A DNA stretch of 64,000 nt from Ignavibacteria bacterium (GTDB taxonomy: Bacteria; Bacteroidota; Ignavibacteria; Tepidaquicellales; OLB5), in NCBI GenBank assembly GCA_041917655.1, contig JAYRXC010000003.1, positions 70,264 through 134,263 of the forward strand. Reading direction: 5' to 3'. The notes beneath the pieces are model-generated. The model ran no database searches, was not told where the DNA came from, and was given only the letters and a program-made list of their open reading frames with translations. Below are positions 3,288-34,186 of the stretch, piece after piece. The position numbers and the translations under genes were made by a program. The first letter of the stretch is position 1; each line of letters opens with the position of its first letter.

Positions 3288-3334
3288 TTAACTGATTTCG
3301 CTTTACTTTGTCAAGTTTACAAAGTATTCTTCAG

Positions 3335-3372: not shown

Positions 3373-3488
3373 GAACTTTTCAAATTAAAGAGCTTTTTGT
3401 TAATCAGAACTTTTTTCAGGCTGCTGAAGTTATCTAATACTCAGCCGGTAAACTACAGATCAAATAATCTAAATTAAAGCAATACGAA

Positions 3489-5342: not shown

Positions 5343-5381
5343 TTATTCCCTTCATTAAAAGAAAGATGTTATTCATCCTGA

Positions 5382-7695: not shown

Positions 7696-7820
7696 GCGAT
7701 TTCAATAATTTACCAATTTGGTACAGAATGTACAAATTAAGTAAATATATAGTTTAATTAAATTGACATTTTATGGTATGATTTAATTTCATATTTTACC
7801 GCACAAATAAAACTTCAAAT

Positions 7821-8360: not shown

Positions 8361-8472
8361 TATTTGGTATTAACTCTAACGCGGGGCAAACCCTTTAGGC
8401 GGGATTTCTCAATTGAAAACCTCTCCAATTTAAGGTATTTTCGTGAATTCCCATAATTTTTAACCACATTTA

Positions 8473-11073
8473 ATGGCTGAAGCCCAGACACCTTTGATGC
8501 GGCAGTATTCGCAGATCAAGGCTAAGTACCCTGATACTGTGCTGCTGTTTCGTATGGGTGATTTTTTCGAAACATTCGATACAGATGCGCATATTGCATC
8601 GAAAGTACTGGGAATAACTCTTACCAAACGTTCTAACGGCTCTGCATCCGAAGTTGCGCTTGCGGGATTCCCGCACCATGCCATAGATAACTACCTGCCA
8701 AAGCTCGTCAAAGCCGGCTATAAAGTGGCTGTTTGTGAACAAATGGAGGACCCCAAGCTTGCCAAAGGCATTGTTAAAAGGGATGTAGTTGAGGTAGTAA
8801 CATCCGGCCTTACATTTTCGGATAAGCTTCTTGACCATAAGAGCAATAACTATATCGCATGTGTATTTTCCCGTGAAGAAAAATGCGGCTTTGCGTTTTG
8901 CGATATTTCTACCGGCGAGTTTTTCACCTGCGAAATTCCGTTCCGCCATGTTAAGGAACAGCTTGAGCTGATAAATCCAGCGGAGATAATCATATCCAAA
9001 CCGCAGAAACAGCTTTTTGCGGGTGTTATCGATATGGAACCGAGTCCGCTTGTACAGAACCGGCTAACCGTAACACGGCTTGATGAATGGATATTCAGCC
9101 ATGATTACTGCAACGAACTTCTTCTTTCCCAGTTCAAAACCAAATCACTCAAAGGTTTCGGTATCGATGAATTCCCCCTTGCTATAATTGCAGCCGGCGG
9201 AATTCTAAGCTATGTGAACGAAACCCAGAAAGGCAACCTTTCGCATATCAATAAGATCGCTTATTACGATACAAGTGACTATATAATACTCGATAACTCA
9301 ACAAAACGAAACCTTGAGATAATCTCTTCCATGGCCGGCGGCAGCCGCGAAGGAACACTGATCTCTATCCTCGACAGAACACAGACAGCAATGGGCGCCA
9401 GGCTGCTGAAGAACTGGATATCCCGACCGCTGAAAAAGCTGGCACAGATACAAAAGAGGCAGGAGTGTGTAACCGAGTTTTATGAAAACAAACCCCTTAG
9501 CGTAAATCTCGCTGCCGCATTGAAAAATATCGGAGACCTTGAAAGGCTGATCTCAAAAATTGCGACAGCCCGCGCAGTTGCCCGTGATTTGATCAATCTG
9601 AAGTACTCGCTTAAGAATCTAGCCGAAGCAAAACTCGAACTGAACAAGGCTGAGTGTAAAACCCTGAAGGATATTAACAGTAACATTAAGCAGCTTGACG
9701 AGCTTGTTAAAATAATCGATGAATCTATCAATGAAGAGAACTCCGTACACATGGAAAGCAAGGTCATCATCAAGCCGGGCTACAACAAGGAGCTTGATGA
9801 GCTGCGCAATATTCTCAACTCAGGCGAAGCATGGATGGAGAATTACCAGCGCAAGGAACGCGAGCGCACTAAGATAAATTCGCTGAAGGTAAGCTATAAC
9901 AGGGTATTCGGTTACTACATAGAAATATCCAAGGCTAACCTTGTGAAGGCTGATGCGATAGAAGGATATATTCGCAAGCAAACACTAGTAAACGCGGAGC
10001 GTTTTATCACACAGGAGCTTAAAGAATATGAAGAAAAGATTCTGACTGCCAATGAGAAGATCGCTGCACTTGAATCAAAGCTGTTTGCAGACGTAAGGCT
10101 GCAGGTTGTGGAGTATGCCAATGATATCCAGATGAATGCAGCTATGATTGGCATTATTGATGTTATGCAGGGTTTTGCAGAAATTGCCCGCCAATATAAA
10201 TATACCCGTCCTGTGCTGAGTGACGCCGACAGTATTGAGATCACCGAAGGCAGGCACCCGGTTATTGAGCAGCTTCTGCCCGCGGGTGAAAAATATGTGC
10301 CAAATGATACGTACCTCGACCCGGCTGATACTCAAGTCATAATTATTACCGGTCCCAACATGAGCGGTAAATCTTCTTATCTTAGGCAGGTTGGATTAAT
10401 AGTTTTGCTGGCGCAGATCGGCTCTTACGTTCCTGCAAAAAAAGCTTCCATCGGGCTGTGCGACAGGATATTCACCCGTGTTGGCGCTATGGATAATATA
10501 GCAAGGGGCGAAAGTACATTCCTGGTTGAAATGCAGGAATCGGCCAATATATTGAACAACCTTACACCCAAAAGCCTTGTTCTGCTTGATGAAGTCGGAC
10601 GCGGTACAAGCACTTATGACGGTATCTCAATAGCGTGGGCTATAACGGAGTTCATTCATGAAAATCCGGCCGCAAAAGCAAAAACGCTTTTTGCCACACA
10701 TTATCATGAGCTGAACGCGCTTGCAAGTCTGTACGCCAGGATAAAAAATTCAAGGGTCGAAGTAAAAGAGGTGGGCGATAAGATAATTTTCCTGCATAAG
10801 ATAAATGACGGCACTGCCGATCACAGCTTTGGAATCCATGTTGCGCAGATGGCAGGTCTGCCGGATATTGTAACTAAACGCGCAAAAGAAATTCTTGCAA
10901 ATCTCGAAAAACGCGAGGAACGCTCCCGCCGCAAAGATGAATTCCAGATCAACCTGTTCGAATATAAAGATAACGAGCTTAAGGATATACTGGATAAGAT
11001 CAATCTGGATAACATGACACCGCTGGAAGCCCTGAACAAGCTCCAGGAACTTAAAAAGCTCATCACAGATTGA
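8473..11073 (+). CDS. mutS: DNA mismatch repair protein MutS
   Basis: N-terminal TPLMRQY..IK..YPD..LLFRMGDFFE. Walker A GPNMSGKSSYLRQ. Also has DEVGRGTSTYDG and a length of 866 aa. Confidence 0.95.
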   Translation: MAEAQTPLMRQYSQIKAKYPDTVLLFRMGDFFETFDTDAHIASKVLGITLTKRSNGSASEVALAGFPHHAIDNYLPKLVKAGYKVAVCEQMEDPKLAKGIVKRDVVEVVTSGLTFSDKLLDHKSNNYIACVFSREEKCGFAFCDISTGEFFTCEIPFRHVKEQLELINPAEIIISKPQKQLFAGVIDMEPSPLVQNRLTVTRLDEWIFSHDYCNELLLSQFKTKSLKGFGIDEFPLAIIAAGGILSYVNETQKGNLSHINKIAYYDTSDYIILDNSTKRNLEIISSMAGGSREGTLISILDRTQTAMGARLLKNWISRPLKKLAQIQKRQECVTEFYENKPLSVNLAAALKNIGDLERLISKIATARAVARDLINLKYSLKNLAEAKLELNKAECKTLKDINSNIKQLDELVKIIDESINEENSVHMESKVIIKPGYNKELDELRNILNSGEAWMENYQRKERERTKINSLKVSYNRVFGYYIEISKANLVKADAIEGYIRKQTLVNAERFITQELKEYEEKILTANEKIAALESKLFADVRLQVVEYANDIQMNAAMIGIIDVMQGFAEIARQYKYTRPVLSDADSIEITEGRHPVIEQLLPAGEKYVPNDTYLDPADTQVIIITGPNMSGKSSYLRQVGLIVLLAQIGSYVPAKKASIGLCDRIFTRVGAMDNIARGESTFLVEMQESANILNNLTPKSLVLLDEVGRGTSTYDGISIAWAITEFIHENPAAKAKTLFATHYHELNALASLYARIKNSRVEVKEVGDKIIFLHKINDGTADHSFGIHVAQMAGLPDIVTKRAKEILANLEKREERSRRKDEFQINLFEYKDNELKDILDKINLDNMTPLEALNKLQELKKLITD

Positions 11074-17668: not shown

Positions 17669-17760
17669 CTAAAAAATAATTATGTTTACAACAACTATTT
17701 CTTGTAATTTAAAGATATGGCTTTGAAAACACGTTCTTTCCAGTGTCACGGCTTCAGCAG

Positions 17761-17955
17761 GACTCTGGAAAAATGAAGACATAGCAGCTTATAGAAAGAT
17801 AAATTTCATGACCTGCGTCATTGTTTAAGGAATAGGGTAGTAGTATATTTGTCTAAATCAATTAATTCGGAAATGGGCTTCCTTAACACTTTTACAGCTT
17901 GTTTCAGAAATGAAGTCCCTTTCATTAATAACATGCTATATATATCAAAAATAAC
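17761..17955 (+). repeat. Duplicated 5' cassette, copy 1 (promoter/leader/first codons)
   Basis: Nearly identical to 19241-19437. By eye, the differences are a few substitutions plus a 2-nt indel around 17901-17911. Confidence 0.9.
17821..17851 (+). promoter_or_regulatory. Candidate promoter inside cassette copy 1 (TTG...TATATTTG), with an ATGAC-N4-GTCAT palindrome just upstream
   Basis: TATATTTG at 17844-17851 and TTG at 17821-17823. The palindrome is at 17808-17821. Confidence 0.4.
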
Positions 17956-19138
17956 GCAGAAGTTCTCTGCGCTTTTTGCATTTATTATTGCTGCATTAAC
18001 CGTTAGCGGACGCGGAGAAAAGACAACAATTTCAGGCAGTTTTAAATCTAAACCAATGATGTTAAAAATCAATTCAAGATTCATGAAACTTACCTTTTTT
18101 GCTATTTTGTCAGTTATTATGTCATTCAGTGACTCTTGCGGAGAAGACCCTGTACGTCCAAGCGAACCGAGTGATGAGATCGAAGTATTAGACAGCAGCA
18201 TCTTTGAGTGGAGCTTCATACCGGTGCCAGTATTTAACTTCTATGATACCTATATAGCTGACACAAATGCAATATTCTATATTGGTGATGGTAAAGTGTA
18301 TTTATGCGACGGGATAAACTCTGTAAGAATATATGATAATATAAACGGTTCTGCTTATACAATAGATGGATCGGGAAATGAGCAGATCTTCATTGGCGGA
18401 TATAAGCAAGGCAGCCTCAACAGTACCCCGTTTCTTAAAAAATGGAATGGGGCCATTTTTGAAGATATTTTGCTGCCGGCTGATTCCAACAACGCCGTAT
18501 GGAATATTTGTGTTGAATCTGCAACCAGTGTATGGTTCGCGGGGCTAAACGGACGGATTTATCATTACGACGGTGTTAATGTTACTGGTTACAGGATAGC
18601 CATCCCTACCACTTTCCCAAAATTTTTCAAAAAAGATAACTCAGTATATTATTATACTGAAACTAATACTCCAAATGTCGTGGCATATGTGTACAAGTTT
18701 GATGGCAGCCAGTGGCAGCATGTCAGCACAGATTCCAGCAGCCCGCCTCTTTCGTGGTCGGGTATGGGACTGCTTGAACCCGGCAGCCACATTCTAAGAA
18801 AAACACCCAAATATATCGAAGAATTTAACGGCAGCAACTGGAACCGGGTTCTAAGAACAAGCGGCTTTGAAACTTACTCAGCGGCAGGTGAAAATTTGAC
18901 GGATTTACTCACTAATGGGATTGAAGAAGGCACTACCTATTTTAGACCATTTTATTACAATGGCTCAAAGTGGTTTCGCGATACTGGGCAATATTATCCC
19001 GAAACAGAGTTTTGGTCTTTCCCCATTGAAATGAAGTATTGCAAAGGAATCTATTTTGGTTTCTATTATGCTATAACGCTAATTAGCCATAATTATATTT
19101 TGGTAGGAAGAAAAATAATCACTCCACCGGTTAAATGA
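17933..19138 (+). CDS. Beta-propeller-like lipoprotein, hypothetical (start ambiguous: 17933 or 18083)
   Basis: The cassette ATG at 17933 gives a hydrophobic N-terminus with no lipobox. A second Met at 18083 gives a classic lipoprotein signal, MKLTFFAILSVIMSFSDSC. The body has repeated blade-like segments (IFYIGDGKVYLCDG, IFIGG, VWFAGLNGRIYHYDG). Confidence 0.6.
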   Translation: MLYISKITQKFSALFAFIIAALTVSGRGEKTTISGSFKSKPMMLKINSRFMKLTFFAILSVIMSFSDSCGEDPVRPSEPSDEIEVLDSSIFEWSFIPVPVFNFYDTYIADTNAIFYIGDGKVYLCDGINSVRIYDNINGSAYTIDGSGNEQIFIGGYKQGSLNSTPFLKKWNGAIFEDILLPADSNNAVWNICVESATSVWFAGLNGRIYHYDGVNVTGYRIAIPTTFPKFFKKDNSVYYYTETNTPNVVAYVYKFDGSQWQHVSTDSSSPPLSWSGMGLLEPGSHILRKTPKYIEEFNGSNWNRVLRTSGFETYSAAGENLTDLLTNGIEEGTTYFRPFYYNGSKWFRDTGQYYPETEFWSFPIEMKYCKGIYFGFYYAITLISHNYILVGRKIITPPVK

Positions 19139-19240
19139 AGAAGGCAAACAGCATCAGTCAACGTACAAAGTGAGTGATTGAACGATTAGTATCGTTTGCG
19201 CTTGCCTATTCCGTAATTTCCAGAGTCTCTGCTCCGGAAG

Positions 19241-19437
19241 GACTCTGGAAAAATGAAGACATAGCAGCTTATAGAAAGATAAATTTCATGACCTGCGTCA
19301 TTGTTTAAGGAATAGGGTAGTAGTATATTTGTCTAAATCAATTAATTCGCAAATGGGCTTCCTTAACACTTTTACAGCTTCTTGCAGAAAAATGAAGTCC
19401 CTTTCATTAATAACATGTTATGTATATCAAAAATAAC
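19241..19437 (+). repeat. Duplicated 5' cassette, copy 2
   Basis: See copy 1. The offset between copies is 1480 nt. Both are preceded by a CCAG(A/T)GTC...GACTCTGG stem-loop. Confidence 0.9.
19301..19331 (+). promoter_or_regulatory. Candidate promoter inside cassette copy 2
   Basis: TATATTTG at 19324-19331, with the same geometry as copy 1. Confidence 0.4.
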
Positions 19438-20530
19438 TTTTGGATTCTTTTCGATTGTGGCATTGCTATTTGCTGCATTTTGTTTTTATTCATGCGGCGA
19501 TGAAACTGTTATGATCTCTAAGGAAGAATTTGATCCTCCAAGATTTAACTGGAGGGGTATTGACTTGCCATTGACCGGATACTCAGATATTTGGGCACAG
19601 GATACTTCAAACATTTATCTGATAAATTATTATGACCGCAATTTATACAGGATCAATAATGGAAATACTTCTGCTTTTAATGCCGGGAATTACGGATTGA
19701 ACCACATGAAGGGAATTAACAACAATGAAATCTACATTTTTGGTGGTGCTTCTGATGGTATAGTTACAATAATAAAATGGGTCGGAGGCAGTTTTGAATA
19801 TTATCCCACAAATATCGATTTAGGTGCACTTACTACTCAAGGAATTAAGGGTTGTGTCCGAAATTCAAACGAAATATGGATATGCTGCCAAATCGGAATT
19901 GCTCGTTTTGATGGCGTTAATTACCAATATTTTTCTTCTGATGACTCAACAATGATGCCACAAACAATTTTTTTAAGTGAGAACAATACCATCCAATATA
20001 TTTCCATGAAAATTGATGAAACTGGCATAAAACATGTGCTTTATGAATTGAACGGAGATTCGTTCGTAAAATTGTACGAATATTTTGGAGACCCTAATGT
20101 TACGAGGAGTTCAGTATTTCTTAAGGAAATGCGGGGAAACAAGTTTGGTTTAGAAATCAAACAACCCGTGGGGGCAAGCTGGAGTCTTTGTTACCTTAAT
20201 TTTCAAAACTACTCTTTATCTCCGGGTTTTTGTTACAATAGCAAGATTCAAACCTTCTCCACTGATGTCCGCTCCATAAATCCTGCAGGATCGAGTCTAA
20301 ATAACTATGTCATGTTCATAGAAGCTGAAAACGGGTTTTTTGAACACTACCGTACAGGTTTGATACATTGGGATGGGAATAAATTCAGTAAGGAGCTTGG
20401 CCTTTCCGGACTTGCCAGGCCATCTTTCAGTATGTTTCTGTTATACAACATAAATGAATCGTCTTATTTATTTCTTGAACCGCATTATTCTGATGCAACC
20501 AGCAAGTTGTATATTGGCACCAAGAAATAA
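19415..20530 (+). CDS. Beta-propeller-like lipoprotein, hypothetical (distant paralog of 17933-19138)
   Basis: The cassette ATG is followed by the lipoprotein signal MLCISKITFGFFSIVALLFAAFCFYSC. Blade-like repeats are present (IYLINYYDRNLYRINNG, IYIFGG, IWICCQIGIARFDG). Confidence 0.7.
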   Translation: MLCISKITFGFFSIVALLFAAFCFYSCGDETVMISKEEFDPPRFNWRGIDLPLTGYSDIWAQDTSNIYLINYYDRNLYRINNGNTSAFNAGNYGLNHMKGINNNEIYIFGGASDGIVTIIKWVGGSFEYYPTNIDLGALTTQGIKGCVRNSNEIWICCQIGIARFDGVNYQYFSSDDSTMMPQTIFLSENNTIQYISMKIDETGIKHVLYELNGDSFVKLYEYFGDPNVTRSSVFLKEMRGNKFGLEIKQPVGASWSLCYLNFQNYSLSPGFCYNSKIQTFSTDVRSINPAGSSLNNYVMFIEAENGFFEHYRTGLIHWDGNKFSKELGLSGLARPSFSMFLLYNINESSYLFLEPHYSDATSKLYIGTKK

Positions 20531-20716
20531 AATGATTAATCAAAAATGGGAAGAGAAGATTAGTATATAATAAGCAATACTCGATTTAGATCTAAGCTCT
20601 TCAATTTAAATAAGAAGCAGACTCAGAATCAAAGACCGCGTCCAACGTTCTTTTGCACCTAAAATCAGGGGCTTTCCTTGTCTGCTTATTCAATAATAAG
20701 CAAAAAAATAACTGCA

Positions 20717-22510
20717 ATGAATACAAAAAGTATTATCCTTTGTATTACTTTTATGGTATCAAACTTATTTACACAGCAATGGATAAATAATTACAACTTT
20801 TCGGCAAATTATCCGGGTTATAATGTTATCCAAATGCAATTTCTAAATGCAGATTTAGGTTTTACTCGCATTAGGAGCGGTAACACAATTAAGATTTTAA
20901 AAACCACAAACAGAGGTACAACATGGAATGAGATAAATTCATATAATGTTTATCCTTACGATTTGTCTGTATATAGCTATATGTACTTCATAAATGAATT
21001 AACAGGTTTTCGATCACACGTTCCTCAAGAAACAGATAAAAATATTCTGGACAAAACAACTGATGGAGGAATGACTTGGATTAGAAAGATTAATTCCACA
21101 GATATTTTTGCCGTGCAGCCCCTTATCGGCTATACTGCTGAACAGGGTTTTTACTTATTGCTTGACAATAAATATCCTGACTTTAATCTTAAGATTTACA
21201 GATCAACTGATGGATTCGAGACTAAAGAAGTTGTTTATGACCAATATCCAGGGCTTCTCAATGACAAATACAGATTTATGAATGCGAAGTCATTTGAAGA
21301 TGGACAGATAGCCGCCGTGGGATTTGTACAAAGGGGCAACAATACAGACTATTTTAGACTTATTACAAATAGTCAATCTCCATATATACCTTATATAACT
21401 ACTAATAGTGATTTTGTTAATAATTACTTAAAATTTGAATATATTTTTAAAGTAAACAACAACTTCAGTTATTTAGGTACACAGGAAAATGTTCCGGGCG
21501 GAATGTCCGGTACAAGACTGTACTTTGACCTTAATCAAAATAATTCAACTTTAATTAACTCTCAATATTCACCTAATAGAGTGGGAGGTCTTTCTTTTTC
21601 ATCAAATAATAAGGGATTCGCTTTAATTGACGACAAGGTTTACTTGACTTTAAATAGTGGGCAAAACTGGAGCCAGGATGCGATTCTGACAAGTCCTATC
21701 ACTACCGGCCAAGATATGCTTACTTCTTTTGGCGATGCTTGCTATGCAATATCCTCCCCCGGCTTTTTCCATACGCGTAAAATATCAGGCAGTTACAATA
21801 CTAATTATGATTGGCAGGCAGGTCTCAACGGTTCCATTACTGTAGATGGAGAAAACATCAGTACACCAAATACAGGCTTTTTCAGAGGCGGCACTGTTTC
21901 TTTGACCGCAAATCAATATATTGTAAATAATACTTATGACACTGCAGCAAGATTTTATTATTGGGGTGGCAATTGCAATGGCAGCATGGGATATAATTCA
22001 GGATCTTATTTAACTAACTCAGGTTCACTGATTACTGCTGACTACAAAACCAAAATGAAATCATCAACACGTGAAGCCTTGAAGAATGCTAACCAGGTAA
22101 AGATCCTGAAAGACACCAACGGCGTAATAAACCTGATCTACGAATCAATGGAGGGAATATTTTACACACGCTCAAAGAACGCAAATGGTGATTTAAAGCG
22201 CGAAGAAATTGTCAGCGGCACTGTGCCCGCAGGTTATGTAACTTATCAAAACAAAAATCCGTACATTAGCGAAATCAAATGGCCTTCGCTGGATGCCAAT
22301 ATGCAGGAAAAGAATGTTGTAGCTTGCTGGGAAAGAAAGGTCGGCAACAGTATTAAGATATATGATGCCTACAGGACTCAATCCTACCCTGAATGGCCCT
22401 GGATTAACAATGAGAAATATACAATTGAAAATGTACCTGAAGGATTTGAGGCATTTCCAAAGGTATTTGCATTGTACCCGGGTTTAATTGCTCCAACACA
22501 GTTTCTTTAA
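20717..22510 (+). CDS. Secreted BNR/Asp-box repeat protein; probably the N-terminal part of an interrupted T9SS cargo gene
   Basis: Signal peptide MNTKSIILCITFMVSNLFTQQ. Asp-box-like motifs TTNRGTTW, TTDGGMTW, STDGFET and LNSGQNW. Ends at a TAA that is in frame with the next ORF. Confidence 0.65.
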   Translation: MNTKSIILCITFMVSNLFTQQWINNYNFSANYPGYNVIQMQFLNADLGFTRIRSGNTIKILKTTNRGTTWNEINSYNVYPYDLSVYSYMYFINELTGFRSHVPQETDKNILDKTTDGGMTWIRKINSTDIFAVQPLIGYTAEQGFYLLLDNKYPDFNLKIYRSTDGFETKEVVYDQYPGLLNDKYRFMNAKSFEDGQIAAVGFVQRGNNTDYFRLITNSQSPYIPYITTNSDFVNNYLKFEYIFKVNNNFSYLGTQENVPGGMSGTRLYFDLNQNNSTLINSQYSPNRVGGLSFSSNNKGFALIDDKVYLTLNSGQNWSQDAILTSPITTGQDMLTSFGDACYAISSPGFFHTRKISGSYNTNYDWQAGLNGSITVDGENISTPNTGFFRGGTVSLTANQYIVNNTYDTAARFYYWGGNCNGSMGYNSGSYLTNSGSLITADYKTKMKSSTREALKNANQVKILKDTNGVINLIYESMEGIFYTRSKNANGDLKREEIVSGTVPAGYVTYQNKNPYISEIKWPSLDANMQEKNVVACWERKVGNSIKIYDAYRTQSYPEWPWINNEKYTIENVPEGFEAFPKVFALYPGLIAPTQFL

Positions 22511-22522
22511 GTCATCACATTT

Positions 22523-24169
22523 TTGAAACCTGATGGCAGTGACAAAAAATTAATAGCAAGGGTGTATTTGGGTGAAAACTTTATTACAGAATATGTATTA
22601 ATAGGTCCTTCAAATATCCAGGAATATGCTATAGCTTCAATTGCAAATGTAATTGGTGAAGATAAGTACTTTAATCTCAACATTGCATATCGTAAGGACC
22701 AACTGATAGGATATAAACGGGTTGAAATTGGAAAAAACATCAGCTTTAACTCATATTTTTGCAATGTAATGGCAGGCTACCCAAACATTTCATCAGAAAA
22801 TTCACGCTGGAGAGCTTCATTGGATATAGCTTTAAAAAACACTTCAAATAGCACAAGCACATTCAATATGCAGCCGGTAATAACATACCAGGGAAGGTAC
22901 GATACAAGAATTATAGTCGATAACGAGGATGGTTCGCCTTCAGAAATAACAGGTTCCTACTATCCAATCTATGTAAGGGAAAGGCTTTCGGATGGCACCT
23001 GGAACAATTTTATTTCATACAATCCGGGCGTAAACATAATACAATTTACACCAAGTGTGGAAGGTTCCAAGCATAAAAATTCATATATGTTAAGTTATGC
23101 ACAGGGTTCCACCGAACCTTACAAATTCATTCAAAAAATTCCTGAATGGAATGGGGTAGTTAATACCCATGGGTTTTTCTGTAGCCCCGGCCATACTTGG
23201 AGTACTGACGCAAAGTTAATCAAGGGAGGGTTAATTAACGATTATTCTGCAAACCAGGACCTTGTTGCACTATTTCCCGATCCGAATCGGAATGGTGTTT
23301 TTACATTAGAAAAACGGCTTTTTACCATAACTAATGGCGCAATAGGCGATGGCAATTATGATGAGGTCATCGGTATTATTGAAGACAATGATGTAAAATA
23401 TTCTTTCAATCTGGGTAATATTATAGTTAATGGTTCAAGCATAGGTTTTCCAGGAGCTCTTGATAACACGATAGAAAATTCTAATGAGCTCAGCAATAAT
23501 ATGGTATCGCAAACTTTTCTACTAAACGAAAATGACACACTTGTAATAGGCAGAAACGCATCGTACTGTTTAGAGACAACAGAATCCGAATTTCGGGAAA
23601 TTGAATATTGGGTTAAGCTAATGAACAAAAGCAAAAATGAAATGCACCGTCTCCTTGTTCACGATACACTCCACTTCATGGACTCATTGCAATTCGAATT
23701 TCTTGAAGGATATATTATTAGGAATATATCAGCCGAAGGTGACAGTTTCTATGTTCAGCTTGAGATTGATACTGTTGATGGTAATTTTGGTATTGGCGGC
23801 GGAATTGGCGGAGATGAAGGTTCAGGCGACAATAATACATTAAAACGCAAGATATTCTGGGAAAATGATAATATGGTTACCAATAACAGTAATAATATTC
23901 CTACTACATTCAATCTGTATCAGAATTTCCCAAACCCGTTCAATCCATCTACTTTGATAAAATATGATTTGCCTAAAGACGTAAATGTGACAATCAGAAT
24001 TTATGACTTATTGGGGAGAGAAGTTGCTACGCTGGTAAATAATGAATTTAAGAATGCAGGAAGATATGAATTAGCATGGAATGCTTTGAACTATGCTACC
24101 GGAGTCTATATCTACAGAATAGAAGCCGGAGACTTTGTATCAACCAAAAAAATGGTGCTGATAAAATAA
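22523..24169 (+). CDS. T9SS C-terminal-domain protein with no signal peptide; probably the C-terminal part of the same interrupted gene
   Basis: Same frame as 20717-22510. It ends with a canonical Por/T9SS sorting domain: YQNFPNPFNPSTLIKYDLP...IYDLLGREV...GVYIYRIEAGDFVSTKKMVLIK. Confidence 0.65.
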   Translation: MKPDGSDKKLIARVYLGENFITEYVLIGPSNIQEYAIASIANVIGEDKYFNLNIAYRKDQLIGYKRVEIGKNISFNSYFCNVMAGYPNISSENSRWRASLDIALKNTSNSTSTFNMQPVITYQGRYDTRIIVDNEDGSPSEITGSYYPIYVRERLSDGTWNNFISYNPGVNIIQFTPSVEGSKHKNSYMLSYAQGSTEPYKFIQKIPEWNGVVNTHGFFCSPGHTWSTDAKLIKGGLINDYSANQDLVALFPDPNRNGVFTLEKRLFTITNGAIGDGNYDEVIGIIEDNDVKYSFNLGNIIVNGSSIGFPGALDNTIENSNELSNNMVSQTFLLNENDTLVIGRNASYCLETTESEFREIEYWVKLMNKSKNEMHRLLVHDTLHFMDSLQFEFLEGYIIRNISAEGDSFYVQLEIDTVDGNFGIGGGIGGDEGSGDNNTLKRKIFWENDNMVTNNSNNIPTTFNLYQNFPNPFNPSTLIKYDLPKDVNVTIRIYDLLGREVATLVNNEFKNAGRYELAWNALNYATGVYIYRIEAGDFVSTKKMVLIK

Positions 24170-24181
24170 AATAGCGTGCAT

Positions 24182-24219
24182 AAAGAAAAGGCAGGATCAA
24201 AACATCCTGCCTTTTCTTT
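24182..24219. terminator. Bidirectional rho-independent terminator between convergent genes
   Basis: 16-bp perfect stem AAAGAAAAGGCAGGAT / ATCCTGCCTTTTCTTT with loop CAAAAC. A/T runs flank both sides. Confidence 0.8.
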
Positions 24220-25531
24220 ATCTTGGCATCTGTGACTTAATGTATTCTGCAGGCACAAGGTAAATCTTCCCCACCTCGCCATCAAATGCCTTGGTGATCA
24301 TTCCGAGGAACTCGCCTGATTCCGTAAACACCGCCCCGCCTTCCAGGGAGATAGGTTTATTGGGCTTTATCTCAACCACGCTGGTCTTGCTCGTCCATTT
24401 TTTTGTTGCGCTCATCATGCCATCCATTGAATATACCACCGAAGAAAGCGTATTGGGATAGTAGAACAGCTTAACTTTATCGCCGTATTTTACCGATGAC
24501 AAAGTTGCGTATTTAATAGGCTTGAACTTATCCGGCGCGCCGTATCTCAAAAATACCAGGTCTTGCTTCTGGTCAAGATCTTTTTCCGTCATTTCATCGA
24601 TCCCTGCAAGTGAATCCGAAGGAAGAATTACACTGAAATAGCCGGCACCTTCAATAAGGTTCATTAGCTCAAAATTCGTCACAAGCAGTCCGTCTTTAAG
24701 CACAACACCGGTCCCGATCTTTACGGGCTCCTGGTTGCGGTTATAAACCTGTACCCTGATGAGCGGATTCTCCTTCTGGCTCACTTTGCCAACCGAGCGG
24801 TCTATCTTCTCTGCGTAGGTTAGCTCAAGTGTAGGGTCTTTAACCATCGAAGCCGTATCTGTCTGCTGGTTGAACATGATGTTTTCCATCGTCATTTCCC
24901 ACGTAAGTGTGTTACCGCTCGATGTCATGGCATTTGATTCTTTTATATCAAACGGGAATGTAATGCTGTATGTTACTTTTTTGTTCGCGTAGGTTGGACT
25001 GAATACGCTGTTCATAAGCTCATCATCAAAGCTTCTTTCAGCCTTGCGGGTAGTATGTTTGAACAGCAGGTCGCCTTCATCGTACTGGAATTTCAGCGTG
25101 CTGAACTGTACCGGGAGCTGGTTTGACCAGGTAAAAGTACACTCTTTGATAACTTTCAGCAGGACTGAAGGCTCATCAAAATGGTACTGAAGGAAAATCT
25201 CCTTTGAACCGTCTGCATTCGATGTTACCTTTACTTCCTTCACCGAAGTTCCGCCTACTCTCTGCATATCCATTTTGATGCGGTTTTCTATCATAGAGTT
25301 ATCGTTAACACTGTCCGCTCTTTTTTTCCATTTGCCTGTAGCATCGCTTGTGGCAAGGATATTCATCCGCTCAAAAAACTCCTTATCAAGAGTAACATAC
25401 ATGTTTTCCATACCGCTTCCGTCCGGGTTCATCTGGATCTCCCTTTTAACATCAAAACATCCGGCTGCAAGAAATGAAATTACGAGCAGCATAGGAACCA
25501 AAATGATATTAAAATATTTCTTTGGGCTCAT
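24218..25531 (-). CDS. Lipoprotein with a C-terminal trypsin-like (S1C-like) domain that appears catalytically degenerate
   Basis: Lipobox SFLAAGC. GTGVVLKDGLLVTNFELM aligns to the G.G..I...G.ILTN.HV block but has Phe-Glu where His is expected. LEGGAVF sits where GNSGGP is expected. Confidence 0.6.
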   Translation of the reverse strand: MSPKKYFNIILVPMLLVISFLAAGCFDVKREIQMNPDGSGMENMYVTLDKEFFERMNILATSDATGKWKKRADSVNDNSMIENRIKMDMQRVGGTSVKEVKVTSNADGSKEIFLQYHFDEPSVLLKVIKECTFTWSNQLPVQFSTLKFQYDEGDLLFKHTTRKAERSFDDELMNSVFSPTYANKKVTYSITFPFDIKESNAMTSSGNTLTWEMTMENIMFNQQTDTASMVKDPTLELTYAEKIDRSVGKVSQKENPLIRVQVYNRNQEPVKIGTGVVLKDGLLVTNFELMNLIEGAGYFSVILPSDSLAGIDEMTEKDLDQKQDLVFLRYGAPDKFKPIKYATLSSVKYGDKVKLFYYPNTLSSVVYSMDGMMSATKKWTSKTSVVEIKPNKPISLEGGAVFTESGEFLGMITKAFDGEVGKIYLVPAEYIKSQMPR

Positions 25532-25557
25532 GGCTGTAAAATTAGATTAAATTATTG

Positions 25558-26478
25558 TTATATAACAACCCTGTTGACTCTTTTCTGTACTAAAAATAAA
25601 ACTATCATAAGCAAATTTAAAGGCAAAATGCAGATTATAAGGAAAGCTTCCATGTTGTTAAATAGCGCAGCCGCGACACAAAGCGTTATATGTGTTGTTG
25701 ATCCAACATAGCTCCAAAGCCTTAATAGTACCCTGTTCTTTGCATAATATACTTTTGGATTCGGTTTTTGTTCAGCCTGCGATTCTTCGTGGTCCTTCTG
25801 GATCTTAAGCTGCAGAGCCGAGTACTTTAGATAAATGCTTATGAGAAACCTCTGGAAAAAATGTGAACCGGATTCGTCATATTTTAATCTCTGTATCTCC
25901 TGCTCATATTCTTTGATCTCTTCGATAATGTTCGATGCGCGCCCGTAAACAACTTCAAGAAATTTGTTCCTGTAGAAATCGAAATAAAAAGCCTGTACTG
26001 CGGATGAGATACCTCCTAAAATACTTAGCACCCATATATAAGTTACCGGCGGCCACTGTAAAATGGAATTCCCCCAGAGTCCGATCTCATGATAACCGAA
26101 CTGCTTTGTAAGTCCTATACCAATTCCAATGAACACGAATATGCTCACTATATAATCAACAAAGCCGTCAACGATCCTGCCGACCTTTGTGCCGTTCTTT
26201 TTCAGGCGTGCTATCTGCCCGTCAGCGCAATCAAGTACATTGCTTGTAAAGTACAAGAAAGCCCCAATGGCAAGGAATGTGAAATCCCCAAAGCTAAAAG
26301 CAACTCCGGCGCTGCACCCTATCAGGAGTGCAGCCACGGAGACCATGTCTGGTGTTAAATTTGTAGAGTAAGTTGCTTTAACGAAAAGGAATGCAAGCGG
26401 GCGGTAGAGAATAAGATCAAATACTTCTTCCACCTCTACTGCTTTCAGAGACGCTTTATATTGGCTGTATAAACTCAA
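25558..26478 (-). CDS. CDP-alcohol phosphatidyltransferase family membrane protein
   Basis: The complete signature D-x2-D-G-x2-A-R-x8-G-x3-D-x3-D is present in DCADGQIARLKKNGTKVGRIVDGFVD. Multiple TM helices. A C-terminal extension beyond the usual roughly 200 aa. Confidence 0.8.
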   Translation of the reverse strand: MSLYSQYKASLKAVEVEEVFDLILYRPLAFLFVKATYSTNLTPDMVSVAALLIGCSAGVAFSFGDFTFLAIGAFLYFTSNVLDCADGQIARLKKNGTKVGRIVDGFVDYIVSIFVFIGIGIGLTKQFGYHEIGLWGNSILQWPPVTYIWVLSILGGISSAVQAFYFDFYRNKFLEVVYGRASNIIEEIKEYEQEIQRLKYDESGSHFFQRFLISIYLKYSALQLKIQKDHEESQAEQKPNPKVYYAKNRVLLRLWSYVGSTTHITLCVAAALFNNMEAFLIICILPLNLLMIVLFLVQKRVNRVVI

Positions 26479-26535
26479 ATATCAGTATTCAGTTCTTTTA
26501 TATCCATTAATATCAGCTTTGAGCGTTTATCCCTG

Positions 26536-27660
26536 TTACTTCCAGTTTACCTCTTTGCAGTACTGCTTAATTGTATCCATAAGCAGCTTGTTCTCATCTT
26601 TTGTGCCGAGCGAGATCCTTGCTTCAGTGCGGAATGCATCTTCATCAAGGAATTTAATCCGGAGATTCCTGTCATCCAGATATTTTTTCAGCCCGGCGCG
26701 TATTTCTACCGGGATATCGACAAGCATGAAGTTGGCGTATGATTTGAAGGGAACAAACTCTCTAAGCTTAAGGAATTCCCTGTACATCATTTCTTTATCT
26801 TTTTCATACTGCTTGCCTACTTTGAGATACCATTTGATGTTATCAAGCGCAATTTCTCCAAGCTTTTCTGAAACCCTGTTGTATCCAAGGTAACGTGTGG
26901 TAAAGTTTATCAGCACATCCAGATTTTTGCCGGCGAATGCAAACCCGATTCGAAAACCTGCAAGCGCAAAGAATTTTGAAAATGTTCTGCAGATTATCAG
27001 GTTTGGGTATTCATCGATAAACGGCTTAACGTATGCGTTCTCGGTTGAGCCGAATCCCCAGTAAGCTTCATCGATCATCGTAATTGTATCCTTTGTAGCG
27101 TCAAGGAATCTCTTCAGGTCTTTGGAATCTATCCTGTTGCCTGTCGGATTGTTCGGTGAAGCTATTACAACAACCTTGGGCTTGGTATCATTGTAGATCT
27201 GTATCATCGTATCTATATCATACAGGTAATAGGGAATGCCGTCTTCGGTTCCTTTTTTCATTGGATACTCAACATTTGTACCGCCGCGTTCTGAAGCAAC
27301 CTTTTTATAATACCACCATGCTTCACGGGGTATCAGGATCTTATCACCCGGATTAACATAACAGTGAATGATCTGTTTCAGCAGGTCTTCGCTGCCATAG
27401 CTTAGCAGCACATGTTTTTCATCAAAACCATAATCATCGGCTATCCTTTTCGATAGTGCCGACTTGATCCCCTTCTGGAAATCGCGGGAATACCATGAAA
27501 GATACTCCATATCAACTTTTTTGAGGAACTTGTAAACCTCCGGCACCGGGCCTGTCTGCGATTCGTTCCTGTCAAGGAACAGCGGTTCTTTAGGGAACTT
27601 TGATTTTGAAGATTTCTGCTTTTTTATGGATGATTTTTTAGACTTTTTTTCTTTTGCCAT
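26536..27660 (-). CDS. Class I/II PLP-dependent aminotransferase, HisC/CobD-like, with a Lys/Ser-rich N-terminal tail
   Basis: LDRNESQTGP, SPNNPTGN and the PLP-lysine block RTFSKFFALAGFRIGF. The start lies 1 nt after the pgk stop. Confidence 0.85.
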   Translation of the reverse strand: MAKEKKSKKSSIKKQKSSKSKFPKEPLFLDRNESQTGPVPEVYKFLKKVDMEYLSWYSRDFQKGIKSALSKRIADDYGFDEKHVLLSYGSEDLLKQIIHCYVNPGDKILIPREAWWYYKKVASERGGTNVEYPMKKGTEDGIPYYLYDIDTMIQIYNDTKPKVVVIASPNNPTGNRIDSKDLKRFLDATKDTITMIDEAYWGFGSTENAYVKPFIDEYPNLIICRTFSKFFALAGFRIGFAFAGKNLDVLINFTTRYLGYNRVSEKLGEIALDNIKWYLKVGKQYEKDKEMMYREFLKLREFVPFKSYANFMLVDIPVEIRAGLKKYLDDRNLRIKFLDEDAFRTEARISLGTKDENKLLMDTIKQYCKEVNWK

Positions 27661-27661
27661 T

Positions 27662-28867
27662 TTATTTGTTATTTAATGCCTCAACACCGGGAAGCGTTTT
27701 GCCTTCAAGGAATTCAAGGCTTGCGCCGCCGCCTGTGCTTACGTGGCTAACCTGTTTTTCGAGGCCGGCTTTGGCAATTGCCGCAGCTGAATCCCCGCCA
27801 CCTATAACCGTAACTGCGCCTTTTTTAGTTGCTTCCGCAAGAGCCGAAGCAACTTCGAATGTACCCTTTGCAAAGTTATCCATTTCAAACACACCCATAG
27901 GGCCGTTCCAAACGATGGTTTTAGCTTTAAGCAATTCATCCCTGAATAGCTTAATTGTTTCAGGGCCGATATCCATCCCTATCATATCTGCCGGGATTGC
28001 ATCTGCTTTATACGTGCTGAACTTTGCGCTGTTCTCGAACTTATCGGCGCAAACAACATCAACCGGCAGCATCAGCTTTGTGCCGGCTTCTGCAATAAGC
28101 TCTTTTGCCAGCTCTATCTTATCTTCTTCAAGCAATGACTTGCCGATCTCATATCCCATAGCTTTATAGAATGTAAATATCATTCCCCCGCCTACCAGTA
28201 TCTTATCGGCTTTGCCAAGCAGGTTCTTAATTACATCTATCTTTCCGGATATCTTACTTCCGCCCAAAATGGCAGCATAAGGATGTTCGGGGTTTGCTAT
28301 TGCCTTCGATAAGTACGCCAGTTCCTTTTCCATCAGGTAACCGGCAGCGCATGTTTTGATGTACTTCGTTACACCTTCAGTGGAAGCATGCGCGCGGTGC
28401 GCGGTTCCGAATGCATCGTTAATATAGATATCACCGTAAGATGCAAGCTTTTTTGCGAATTCAGGATTGTTCTTTTCCTCTTCATTATAGAATCTCAGGT
28501 TCTCAAGCAGCAGAATATCGCCATCCTGCAGATCGTTTACTATAGCTTCGGTGCTTTCCCCGATGCAGTCATCCGCGAACAATACAGGCTTATCGAGCAA
28601 TTCCGAAAGGTGCATAGCTATTGGCCTGAGGGAATACTTCATGTTCTTTTCGCCTTTTGGCCTGCCCATGTGGCTCATCAAGATCAGCTTGCCGCCTTCA
28701 CTTGTTATCTTTTTTATGGTAGGAAGAGATTCTACAATCCTTTTATCGTCTGTTATTTGCCCTTCATTTTCCTTTGACATCGGCACATTAAAATCGACCC
28801 TGACCAAAACCCTTTTGGATTTCAGACCGCCTGATGCTGCAAGATCCTCAATTGTTAATTTGTTCAT
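27662..28867 (-). CDS. pgk: Phosphoglycerate kinase
   Basis: [24 protein letters not shown] and [11 protein letters not shown] prefer the Met at 28867 (MNKLTIEDL) to the track start at 28906. Confidence 0.95.
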
Positions 28868-28997
28868 ATTTGTATTAGTCAGCCGCACTGCGGCTTTGCT
28901 TTTCATTCATAATTACAGCCCACGGCTTAAAGCCATGGGCTGTTTAATAATTTGTCGAAATGTCACCTTATCACAGATTCCCTAACCGGCGAATATA

Positions 28998-30137
<1,140 letters not shown>

Positions 30138-30198
30138 TCAGTCTGTTAGAGCTAAATAAGATAAACACGGACTGTGTTTTTTATGTACGTAATAATAA

Positions 30199-30227
30199 AA
30201 AAGGGACTTTTTACGGAAGTCCCTTTA
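30199..30227 (-). terminator. Rho-independent terminator for gene 30249-30608
   Basis: GGGACTT/AAGTCCC stem. On the minus strand it is followed by TTTTTATTATT. Confidence 0.6.
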
Positions 30228-30248
30228 TAAACCCAAACTGCTAAAAAT

Positions 30249-30608
30249 TTACTCCATTGCAGAATAAGTGCCGTCTGCATTCAGAATCAGTGTATGCAGC
30301 TTGCATGCATCCATACCCGTAAAAGTTATGTAATTTCCTTCCAAATCTGTTATTTTCATGTCGAAAAGACAGGTTGAGCCGTAATCAGCGGGAATATCAA
30401 CTCTTACAGATGTGCTTGCTTCGAAAAGGTCATTGGGAAGAATATCATTTCCCCAATTCGTGGTTTCCGAAGGAGTAACGTAGATGTTGTTAAGTGTAAC
30501 GCCTGTATTGTTTGTTACAAAGAAATACAAAGCCTGTGAATAACTGCTTGTTTCTGCAAACATAAAGCTCACAACCAAGAACGATACAGCAAGAAGAATC
30601 TTTTTCAT
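30249..30608 (-). CDS. Small secreted hypothetical protein
   Basis: Signal peptide MKKILLAVSFLVVSFMFA. No recognisable motif. Confidence 0.55.
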   Translation of the reverse strand: MKKILLAVSFLVVSFMFAETSSYSQALYFFVTNNTGVTLNNIYVTPSETTNWGNDILPNDLFEASTSVRVDIPADYGSTCLFDMKITDLEGNYITFTGMDACKLHTLILNADGTYSAME

Positions 30609-30763
30609 TATATATATGTTTTAGTTAATAATAATGAGCAAAGATATACATTTTAACATCATTCTCCAAAAGGTAAATCGTAAAATAGTGTAAACCAGTA
30701 CCTTAATAATATTTGTTTGATTATTTGAAAGATTTTCCTATTTTGCAATAAAGATCGTACACT

Positions 30764-31327
30764 GTGAAAACTGCCTTTTACATAATGTTTTTTTCTATTG
30801 TCTTCTTACTTGTGGAAACAAGCCTGAGGGCGCAATGCCGCCTTGGTGAAGAAGATACCGGTGTATACAAGCAGATGCAGTTCAGCATGCAAAACGGTCT
30901 ATATGGTGATGCCAAGATCCGTGCGAAAGTTTTGATAACAAAGTACGGGAATTCCTGCCCGGAGCTTTATTACGATGCGGGATGGTTAAGCTATATGACC
31001 GAATCATGGTGGGATACCATAGAATTTATGCGCCTCGCCCTCAGGACTCTCGATTTCAGCAACCAGAGACTCCTGTTTGCCTATGCCGCGGTTGGAATTG
31101 CGTATTACAATGTTGATTACAGTACCGAATCGATTACGTATCTGGACAAGGCCATATCACTTGACCCCAAAGCTGACTACTATAAATACCGGGGATTAGC
31201 ATATTACAAGCTTGAAGATTACAATTCCGCACTGGCTGATTTCCAGGAAGCGAAAAAACTGGGATCAGAGTTCAACTCCTCTGAATCCGATATTTTCTGG
31301 GATGCAGCCGCAAAAATAAAGCAATAG
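30764..31327 (+). CDS. Secreted TPR-repeat protein
   Basis: GTG start and a signal peptide. TPR-like repeats (AIGIAYYNVDYSTESITYLDKAISLDP, YRGLAYYKLEDYNSALADFQEAKKL). Confidence 0.7.
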   Translation: MKTAFYIMFFSIVFLLVETSLRAQCRLGEEDTGVYKQMQFSMQNGLYGDAKIRAKVLITKYGNSCPELYYDAGWLSYMTESWWDTIEFMRLALRTLDFSNQRLLFAYAAVGIAYYNVDYSTESITYLDKAISLDPKADYYKYRGLAYYKLEDYNSALADFQEAKKLGSEFNSSESDIFWDAAAKIKQ

Positions 31328-31581
31328 TTATTCAATAATAGACATCAAAAATACACTTTCATAACCTATTTCAACCAGTTTATTGACTAAATCTCAAAAT
31401 TTCCAAAAACCATGACATAGAACATTGATATTAGTGACCTATATGGGTATATTTGCATATAACTTTAAGAGGAATTGTGAGTTTTTGAGCCTTTTTGCCT
31501 CGAAAATCACTGAAAACCATGTAAAAACAAGCAAATTCTATCAAAATCTGATAACTTTTAATAAGGAGATTTTCGGCATTT

Positions 31582-32145
31582 ATGGGTTCAACTTCTGATT
31601 TACGCAACGGATTAGTAATTAAGTATAACGGTGAGCTTCACGTGATTATCAAATGGGAACACCGCACACCCGGCAACCTTCGAGCCTTTTACCAGGTAAA
31701 AATGAAAAATCTTAAGAACGGCAAAACGATCGAGAATCGTTTCCGTTCAGGTGAAGAGATCGATATAGTAAGGATGGAGACCAGAAATTTCCAGTATCTG
31801 TATCATGATGGATCGGGATATGTTTTCATGGATAATGATAACTATGACCAGGTTTCAATTCCGGATGATATAGTTGGCGAGCAGGCCCTGTTCATGAAAG
31901 AAAGCGAGAATGTTCAGATAATGTTCGACGGTGAAAAACCTGTTACGGTTGAAATTCCCCCGCACGTAGAGCTGAAAGTTGTTGAGGCTCCCCCGGGAAA
32001 TAAAGGCGATACGGCTACCGGAGGCACAAAACCAGTTAAAGTTGAAACAGGCGCAACAGTAAACGCGCCTATGTTCATTAGCGAAGGCGATATAATTAAA
32101 GTGGATACCCGTAACTCTGCGTACCTGGAAAGAGTAAAGAAGTAA
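31582..32145 (+). CDS. efp: Translation elongation factor P
   Basis: DLRNG..I..NGE........HR.PGN..AF.Q.K.KNL..G, and 187 aa in length. Confidence 0.95.
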   Translation: MGSTSDLRNGLVIKYNGELHVIIKWEHRTPGNLRAFYQVKMKNLKNGKTIENRFRSGEEIDIVRMETRNFQYLYHDGSGYVFMDNDNYDQVSIPDDIVGEQALFMKESENVQIMFDGEKPVTVEIPPHVELKVVEAPPGNKGDTATGGTKPVKVETGATVNAPMFISEGDIIKVDTRNSAYLERVKK

Positions 32146-32274
32146 TATAGTAAGCTTGGGTATTTTTCAGCGCCCCTGATTAGCGGACACTGAAAAAAAC
32201 AAACAAACAATATTTCCAGACAATAATGTCAATAATATCCACAATCTATAACGAGGTAAGGATAAACAAAGAAA

Positions 32275-32796
32275 ATGAAAACTGATCTAAACTACATCAA
32301 AAAGTTGTTAAAGATCCTTGAAACCGGAGAGATCAATGAAATTGAGATCGAAGAAGAAGGCACAAGGGTAAGAGTGGTAAAAAGCAAAGCCCCCGAGGCA
32401 CAAGCTGCTCCGCAGGTTATTACCTACAGCGCGCCGCCGCAGGTAATTGCACCTCAGCAGAGCGCACCGGCAGCCCCTGCACCGCAGGCACCGGCTCCGC
32501 AGCCAAAAGCTGAAGAGAAAAAAGAAGTTCCCGCAGCTCCCCCGGGCAAAGATCTTATTGAGGTTCGTTCACCAATTGTCGGCACATTCTACAGGGCTCC
32601 TTCACCTAACGCCGACCCGTATGTCCAGATCGGACAGCAGGTATCCAAGGGAAATGTTTTGTGCATTATCGAAGCAATGAAGCTCATGAATGAGATCGAG
32701 TGTGAATTCGAAGGCAAGATAGTAAAAATGATGGTAGAAAATGCTCAGCCTGTTGAATATAACCAGGTTCTTTTCCTGATAGAACCAAATAACTGA
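32275..32796 (+). CDS. accB: Acetyl-CoA carboxylase biotin carboxyl carrier protein
   Basis: Pro/Ala linker. Biotinyl-lysine motif [11 protein letters not shown]. Confidence 0.9.
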
Positions 32797-32826
32797 TCCG
32801 GCTTTTTAACCTAAGGTAACCAGAAA

Positions 32827-34164
32827 TTGTTAAAGAAAATATTAATAGCAAACAGGGGCGAAATTGCCCTGAGAATAATTCGAACCTGCCGGGATATGGG
32901 CATCAAAACAGTTGCCGTGTATTCCGAAGCAGACAAGGAATCTCTGCATGTGAAATTTGCCGATGAAGCGGTTTGTATAGGTCCGCCGCCTTCAAGAGAA
33001 AGCTACCTGAGTATCCCGAGAATAATAGCAGCTGCCGAAATAACCAACGCAGACGCAATTCACCCGGGTTACGGCTTTTTGGCAGAAAATGCCGAGTTTT
33101 CGGAAATTTGCAGTGAATCTGAAATAAAATTTATCGGACCATCACCCCAGATGATACGCTCAATGGGTGACAAGGCTTACGCTAAAGATACAATGAAAAA
33201 AGCCGGCGTACCGGTTGTACCGGGCAGCGACGGTGTTATCGCAACATCTGAAGAAGCAAAAAAGATCGCAGCAGAATTTGGCTACCCCGTACTTATCAAA
33301 GCTTCCGCAGGAGGCGGCGGTAAAGGTATGAGGATAGTACACGAAGAAAGCGAGCTTGATAATGCTTTCACTATGGCTACCAACGAAGCGCTGAATGCAT
33401 TTGGAAACGGTGAAGTTTATGTTGAAAAATTTGTTGAAAATCCGCGCCACATAGAAATACAGGTAATGGGCGACCAGTTCGGGAACGTTGTTCATTTGGG
33501 CGAACGTGACTGTTCTGTTCAGCGCAGGCACCAGAAGCTTATCGAGGAGACCCCTTCGCCGTTCATAACCGAAGAGATCCGCGAGGCAATGGGTGCTGCC
33601 GCTGTAAAGGGCGCTAAATCTGTTAACTATGAAGGCGCCGGCACAGTAGAATTTATTGTTGATAAGAACAAGAATTTCTACTTCATGGAAATGAATACAA
33701 GGATACAGGTTGAGCACCCCGTTACCGAACAGGTTACAGGCGTTGATCTAATCCGCGAACAGATCGCAGTTGCATCCGGCCTTAAGCTTAAAGTAAAAAA
33801 AGTTAAGCGCGAAGGGCACTCAATTGAGTGCAGGATAAATGCGGAAAATCCTGATAAGAATTTCGCTCCTTCACCGGGAAGGATCACATCATTCCATATG
33901 CCCGGAGGTATTGGCGTCCGTGTTGATACTCATGCTTATGCGAATTATTACATTCCACCGTACTATGACAGCATGATAGCTAAGCTTATCGTTACGGCTG
34001 ATAACCGCGAAGAAGCTATCAAGCGCATGTACAGGGCCCTTGATGAGTTCATTATCGAAGGTGTATTTACAACCATCCCCTTCCATAAAAAGGTTATGAA
34101 ACATGAGAAATTTATTGATAGCGACTATGACACCAGCTTTATCGAAAAGTACAAGCTGGCTTAG
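32827..34164 (+). CDS. accC: Acetyl-CoA carboxylase biotin carboxylase subunit
   Basis: [26 protein letters not shown] and [19 protein letters not shown] start. Confidence 0.95.
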
Positions 34165-34186
34165 AAGCCGCTTAGATTGAAGATAT

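Follow-up and report, generated by a model that had tools for sequence, protein, structure and literature searches.

Does the in-frame TAA at 22508-22510 of this stretch separate two genes, or does it interrupt a single one, and what would an interruption mean for the protein? The stretch, referred to here as the window, comprises 64,000 nucleotides of contig JAYRXC010000003.1 from an Ignavibacteria bacterium, and the locus in question, 20717-24169, encodes the parts of a type IX secretion system (T9SS) cargo protein. As seen in both the list of open reading frames (ORFs) and the raw sequence, two ORFs share one frame here, 20678 (TTG) or 20717 (ATG) to 22510 and 22523 (TTG) to 24169, with an offset of 1845 nt, or 615 codons. 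Between them stand only the TAA and four sense codons (GTC ATC ACA TTT), just as the first-pass annotation, made from the letters alone, had described, and the translation across the junction reads ...APTQFL(stop)VITFLKPDGSD... We propose, with a probability of about 0.78, that 20717-24169 is a T9SS cargo gene in which one Ignavibacteria clone has fixed a very recent loss-of-function (nonsense) allele. The locus is laid out as follows.

20717-22507, forward strand: upstream half, 597 codons; signal peptide, Ycf48-like beta-propeller, beta-sandwich and the beginning of a family-specific beta region.
20717-20773, forward strand: signal peptide MNTKSIILCITFMVSNLFT, then a conserved QQW; the cleavage site is putative, judged from homolog N-termini and hydropathy.
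22508-22510, forward strand: premature TAA, formerly GAA (Glu), through G->T at 22508, as judged from the contigs L001-L004, which carry GAA.
22511-24169, forward strand: downstream half, 552 sense codons and the natural TAA, with beta-rich modules specific to the family, a Gly-rich linker and the T9SS C-terminal domain (CTD).
23927-24166, forward strand: T9SS type A C-terminal sorting domain (TIGR04183 E 3.2e-12, PF18962 E 4.5e-9).
24180-24221, no strand: perfect 18-nt inverted repeat with a 6-nt loop, from a repeat scan, between the cargo gene and the convergent gene 24218-25531.

We take the ATG at 20717 as the true start because nearly all full-length homologs begin with MKxK, a hydrophobic stretch and QQW; in the downstream half, the first possible restart is the TTG at 22523. 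The inverted repeat at 24180-24221 is probably a bidirectional terminator, and the repeat scan found no comparable hairpin at the junction. The presence of such a hairpin at the natural stop and its absence from the junction fit a single transcription unit.

The fused translation of both halves was searched against 5.8 billion proteins. It gave about 20 homologs, each a single ORF of 1131-1217 aa, that align with 95-100 % of the query at 31-96 % identity; in total, 41 full-length family sequences were collected, and in each of them one ORF of 1130-1234 aa continues through the junction. Every one of the 22 homologs that were aligned (about 20 of them full length) is continuous across it, and the 96 %-identical ortholog has GAA at the stop, which bears out the initial reading of a single split gene. 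Orthologs that are consistently two separate genes, the pattern named at the outset as contrary to that reading, are not what the alignment shows; the full-length homologs are single ORFs. On this comparison of sequences, 20717-24169 is one gene for a T9SS cargo protein of ~1150 residues. The stop sits in a loop of variable length and sequence, flanked by the conserved blocks GFECFPKIF and TYLKPxG, and the stop column itself is variable, with E, K, Y, R, I, V, L, G or T in the homologs. When 1.84 billion representatives were searched with a profile built on the central region specific to this family, 63 clusters (50 % identity) matched at E <= 1e-30; the region is unbroken in each full-length representative. 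Outside the CTD, whose relatives are overwhelmingly from Ignavibacteria, the family was found to be covered by no Pfam or NCBIfam model. The EF-P of this uncultured organism likewise belongs to a 90 % cluster that takes its name from metagenome-assembled genomes of Ignavibacteria.

Some candidates did not belong to this family. The contig L029, at first counted as carrying a full-length single-ORF ortholog, was rejected, as its match to 'residues 33-1150' is the union of unrelated high-scoring segments over separate genes; positions 1-9708 of this contig (Ignavibacteria metagenome-assembled genome (MAG) MFD04944.bin.2.51) hold seven consecutive same-strand genes, each ending in a T9SS CTD. Proteins of ~710 aa with a Ycf48-like part and a CTD were likewise rejected as short forms of the cargo family. 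In a genome scan with the family alignment, matches to the CTD drowned out the rest, and re-scanning its 80 loci with the family hidden Markov model (HMM) gave no further family member. The DNA pattern of the junction, with N at the first stop position, had no match in JGI metagenome contigs.

The closest relative of the window's protein (P0001/P0101, 96 % identical) is encoded on the contigs L001-L004, which are syntenic with window 20449-34165; L001 has 97.4 % nucleotide identity over 13.7 kb. Where the window reads TAA, all four contigs read GAA (Glu), a difference of a single G->T at 22508. As judged from this comparison, the TAA is the derived state, arising from the GAA codon of Glu598. 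The TAA haplotype was assembled separately from at least five runs (SRR22032297, SRR22032298, SRR26835159, SRR35571890 and SRR30977643) and is also found in the NCBI MAG GCA_964577125.1, and all contigs that carry it are 100 % identical to the window over 2.1-8.6 kb. Both half-proteins are present in the public collection, on 5-6 and 2-3 contigs, respectively; no intact protein of the window's haplotype occurs in its 90 % cluster. The intact haplotype is identical across SRR19611629, SRR19611630, SRR36443200 and SRR7119513, and the intact-allele contig of SRR7119513 is reported in 20 or more samples. Since the TAA and GAA haplotypes each recur in separate runs, they represent two clonal strains that differ in having or lacking the stop. 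Searching the literature by SRA run number for the habitat gave no result. All four intact-allele contigs, from four runs, begin at the same base (window 20449), which suggests that assembly broke consistently right upstream of it, perhaps because of the repeated lipoprotein paralogs or of strain variation.

Each half carries one of the two signals needed by T9SS cargo. The upstream half opens with a Sec signal peptide (MNTKSIILCITFMVSNLF followed by TQQW; maximum Kyte-Doolittle 11-mer 2.4), found at the same place in nearly all full-length homologs. The N-terminus of the downstream half is not hydrophobic (maximum 11-mer 1.05), so that the signal peptide is indeed confined to the upstream half. 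Of the four Asp-box/BNR-like motifs initially listed, three are strict (TTNRGTTW, TTDGGMTW, TLNSGQNW); the fourth, RSTDGFET, is degenerate and was read by eye, the Pfam BNR match of the protein is below threshold (E 0.7), and the curated threshold of PSII_BNR is also unreached. At the other end, the sorting domain proposed by the first-pass annotation was recovered at residues 473-549 of the 552-aa downstream part, with 46.2 bits for TIGR04183 (cut-off 23) and 36.9 bits for PF18962 (cut-off 27). A single polypeptide carries both signal peptide and CTD in the intact orthologs P0101 and P0002-P0020, unlike in the window. The lack of a visible Shine-Dalgarno (SD) sequence before the TTG at 22523, also remarked upon earlier, says little, because SD-like motifs precede only 7 of the 25 clear genes of the window.

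The architecture of the uninterrupted protein was modelled with AlphaFold2 (AF2) on an intact ortholog (mean pLDDT 71), and the model divides as follows.

Residues about 20-350: confident beta-propeller.
Residues about 350-445: beta-sandwich.
Up to residue about 1027: further beta-rich segments.
Residues 1027-1077: low-confidence Gly-rich linker.
Residues 1078-1149: CTD.

The best Foldseek match of the model is Ycf48 (E 6e-9, TMt 0.63), followed by many double-propeller proteins, and the family profile searched against PDB sequences also reaches Ycf48, at E 1e-5. A separate model of the central region is poor (pLDDT 57.6), and its propeller matches in Foldseek are weak (E >= 1.4e-3). Beta-strands lie on both sides of the junction loop, and the models are uninformative on contacts across it.

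Cargo of the T9SS follows a two-step route, in which Sec export and cleavage by signal peptidase I (SPI) precede CTD-dependent export by the T9SS (PMC5837995). A single G->T has turned GAA (Glu598) into TAA, with the sister strain keeping the intact gene, and translation of the mutant allele would end after residue 597. The N-terminal product, having the signal peptide, would reach the periplasm, where the T9SS could neither export nor anchor it without a CTD. Any product reinitiated at the TTG at 22523 would have the CTD but no signal peptide, and would stay in the cytoplasm. With the signal peptide and the CTD on different polypeptides, T9SS biology predicts that the secreted or surface function is lost, which supports the earlier statement that neither half is a complete T9SS substrate. 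Because the stop lies in a variable loop that probably acts as a module boundary, the N-terminal fragment may still fold, and since the next gene is convergent, no polar effect would be expected. For annotation, it would be best to join the two ORFs into one gene marked as disrupted, rather than to list two hypothetical proteins.

The sequence past the stop bears on the age of the allele. The 552 codons past it contain no other stop or frameshift. By the Nei-Gojobori method, dN/dS against L001 is 0.08 upstream and 0.20 downstream of the stop, while neighbouring housekeeping genes give 0.01-0.03; the sorting domain differs from that of L001 by 0 nonsynonymous and 2 synonymous changes. When the amino-acid differences were polarised with 18 outgroups, 12 of the changes downstream of the stop were derived in the window and 14 in the intact strain, with 7 ambiguous, and in the columns that are most conserved the window keeps the ancestral residue. 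At 23240-23260, also in the downstream half, the window and L001 differ by an in-frame 3-nt indel amid five amino-acid changes in nine residues (DYSANQ versus DNFYQ), and outgroup comparison places the window nearer the ancestral state. A derived and reproducible stop with no second lesion downstream favours the recent nonsense pseudogene, which had been one of several options originally offered.

The divergence between the two strains is unevenly distributed along the syntenic region, as the comparison with L001 shows.

20449-21800: 2 mismatches, 0.15 % divergence.
21801-29450: 324 mismatches, 4.2 % divergence.
29451-34165: 27 mismatches, 0.57 % divergence.
21910-29109, no strand: block of 4.2 % divergence between the window and L001, with flanks at 0.15-0.6 %, from the contig comparison.

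The block at 21910-29109 (about 7.2 kb) is probably a homologous-recombination tract. Starting within the upstream half of the cargo gene, it extends into the GAPDH gene, and it includes the TAA some 600 nt from its left edge. Despite this mosaic divergence, the identity of all TAA contigs indicates that the allele is very young. The two strains, about 99.5 % identical outside the 7-kb tract, form a natural pair of knock-out and wild type, which could help to assign a function given metaproteomes or enrichment cultures.

The genetic context of the stop is ordinary. TAA ends 15 of the 25 clear genes of the window and is the commonest normal stop; the window's two tRNA genes are both tRNA-Ser, and no suppressor tRNA was found within the 64 kb. 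Code reassignment, which the first pass had called unlikely, is accordingly rejected. Three other same-frame ORF pairs in the window (deaminase/MatE, PaaB/PaaC and unknown/LytR_C) are unrelated neighbours, and the cargo gene is the sole split gene among about 55. Phase variation was considered and rejected, as the junction has no simple-sequence tract or invertible repeat.

Relatives of the cargo gene are also broken near this loop. The contig L094 (Logan SRR21677145, 27 kb, positions 3045-6509) encodes a 1154-codon family member (HMM 4-1144, E 3e-244) with exactly one in-frame TGA, at codon 635 (...HLRPNGSQNKIFASV(stop)YNTQ...), 14 codons beyond the L of the LKP/LRP motif. In the window, the stop comes 5 codons ahead of that L, which puts the stop of L094 19 codons downstream of the window-stop position. 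On NCBI/ENA contigs of up to 55.9 kb, P0268 ends in ...TYLKPEDNNNK and P0129 starts with [M/V]YCIQDQ; their intact sibling P0271 reads ...NNNK-SIQA-VYCIQDQ... P0170, on a JGI contig, ends in the loop, and a same-frame ORF of >501 aa starts 111 nt later. In P0268/P0129 and P0170, too, independent in-frame stops seem to have arisen within about 22 codons of the window's stop. The single in-frame stops of L094, P0268/P0129 and P0170 fall at about HMM 595-616, and the interrupted lineages are far apart from one another, sharing 33-54 % identity with different full-length relatives. The stop position is not conserved: the nearest relative has GAA, and the other stops range from 2 codons upstream to 19 downstream.

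A different kind of variant marks the same loop. L091/P0175 (ENA ERZ21878252 contig_1, 3.6 Mb, positions 4001-6137) matches HMM 1-590 at E 7e-99 and then passes to linker and CTD, which lie in the +1 frame after the A-run GTTAAAAAAGGC; the frameshift may be either real or a long-read homopolymer error. By going from HMM 1-590 straight to linker and CTD, this short form marks the loop as a module junction, and the stop therefore probably lies in a variable loop that acts as a module boundary. A loop 'inside a domain', the reading first suggested by the AF2 model, was given up in favour of this one on the evidence of the short form.

The lead on recurrent interruption rests on fragments near the stop site only, and enrichment there is unproven. 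Across the family, the end points of fragments are scattered, as expected for fragments at contig ends, and starts of C-terminal fragments cluster at conserved start-like codons, an effect of gene calling. Truncated members on long contigs also end at about HMM 962-963 (P0021 and P0266). A site-blind pairing of N- and C-terminal fragments, a test without power, recovered only the window's own pair. P0138/L092 and P0124/L093 were rejected as nonsense splits, the one being a plain contig-edge fragment and the other a 5′-truncated remnant.

How well, then, does the recent loss-of-function allele stand against other explanations? Were the TAA partly decoded, by near-cognate tRNAs or by a suppressor encoded elsewhere, readthrough would give a low output of full-length, secretable protein and the stop would act as a damper of expression. 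The downstream part is fully intact, as this would require, and the near-cognate insertions usual at UAA would probably be tolerated in the variable stop column, which includes K, Y, R and E. However, the codon of the nearest relative is an ordinary sense codon, genes of the window most commonly end in TAA, the window has no suppressor tRNA, and the stops of other lineages differ in codon as well as in position (TGA in L094), leaving no conserved recoding signal. The window's stop is moreover followed by G, and TAA followed by G terminates efficiently in E. coli. We therefore consider readthrough very unlikely, and no positive evidence points to it or to reversion. A sequencing, assembly or consensus error, with a sense codon at 22508-22510 and an intact gene in reality, was offered by the first-pass annotation. 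The difference is indeed a single base, and G->T changes can result from oxidative damage during library preparation. The same base, however, recurs in 100 % identical assemblies of the runs listed above, which belong to several accession series, and in the separate MAG, and the split products are on record on several contigs each, so that an error is extremely improbable.

The more serious competitor is a truncation tolerated or selected at the module boundary, in which the stop would yield a folded, periplasmic protein that lacks the CTD and retains a function; this would explain the recurrence. As L091/P0175 illustrates, a protein can have the N-terminal ~590 residues and lack the 600-1040 module; length and sequence of the loop differ between family members; the three other lineages have their single in-frame stops at about HMM 595-616; and the upstream genes for the partner lipoprotein are intact. 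But the sampling was confined to the vicinity of this site, P0021 and P0266 end elsewhere, and L091 retains its CTD, albeit in the +1 frame, and so supports a module boundary rather than the usefulness of a product without CTD; the AF2 models, with strands on either side of the loop, are uninformative on the matter. We regard this explanation as unlikely. Still bolder is the claim that the loop around the conserved YLKP motif is a recurrent, selectively favoured break point that uncouples the N-terminal module from the C-terminal modules and the CTD, which we find quite doubtful. If it were favoured, possible reasons would be the relocation of the N-terminal module from surface to periplasm, or the shedding of a surface target of phages or grazers while a periplasmic activity with the upstream lipoprotein is kept. 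Should it hold in an unbiased census, it would amount to recurrent, site-specific gene splitting in secreted proteins, more interesting than a routine allele. Several points also weigh against a simple recent loss. The clustering of stops in three distant lineages is not predicted by purely random loss, although the sampling was biased to this region. The intact 552 codons downstream fit continued selection on them as well. Furthermore, because the probable recombination tract contains the stop, dN/dS reflects the divergence of donor and recipient and not the time since the stop arose. Taken by itself, the recent nonsense allele is a routine strain-level loss of function, and a possible recurrence at the module junction is the one feature that could set it apart.

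Among known systems, the intact orthologs resemble T9SS type A cargo, such as the gingipains of P. gingivalis, in having a Sec signal peptide at the N-terminus and a type A sorting domain at the C-terminus, and the conserved Gln after the hydrophobic core (QQW) recalls the Q-rule of SPI substrates in Bacteroidetes (PMC5837995). They differ in their passenger domains, which belong to a small uncharacterised family, and in the window the TAA has put the signal peptide and the CTD on separate ORFs. The N-terminal ~330 residues, a putative member of the seven-bladed BNR propellers of the Ycf48/HCF136 type, resemble Ycf48 in profile (E 1e-5) and in fold (TMt 0.60-0.65), and the cargo protein has 3-4 Asp-box-like motifs. 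In contrast to these proteins, the host is not a phototroph, Pfam thresholds are unreached, and the 1150-aa secreted protein has other modules besides the propeller. With young nonsense pseudogenes of surface or secreted proteins, the locus shares a single derived stop, an intact allele in a sister strain, the lack of secondary decay and the nature of an accessory gene for a secreted protein. Unlike in those, stops occur within about 22 codons in three distant lineages of the same family, and the site coincides with a module junction.

Two related genes precede the cargo gene.

19382-20530, forward strand: probable lipoprotein gene (...FCFYSCGDE), directly upstream of the cargo gene.
17849-19138: tandem paralog of the lipoprotein gene at 19382-20530.

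Homologs of the lipoprotein gene at 19382-20530 lie immediately upstream of the family member in both L091 (E 3e-26) and L094 (E 1e-13). Among the window's copy, L091 2923-3999 and L094 1958-3022, which encode about 355-380 aa, homology is found at E 1e-13 to 1e-56. Since a homologous lipoprotein lies directly upstream in three distant genomes, the family gene is part of a conserved two-gene cassette. The bodies of the two lipoprotein paralogs are only about 24 % identical at the protein level. Their upstream regions and first codons form a 227-nt direct repeat (17732-17955 and 19212-19437, 94-96 % identical), which could reflect gene conversion or a strongly conserved regulatory leader.

The T9SS cargo genes of this strain are otherwise intact, as at 46175-49192 on the reverse strand, which encodes an uninterrupted 1005-aa protein with a C25 propeptide, a C25 peptidase domain, a P-domain and a T9SS CTD; its match to the PorU model is weak (68 bits, cut-off 420). 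SprA and PorK/L/M/N are not among the genes of the window, where no search aimed at these core genes was made. Further along, 49527-55082 on the forward strand holds three tandem paralogs of about 590-600 aa, each a TPR sensor histidine kinase with TPR repeats, HisKA and HATPase_c.

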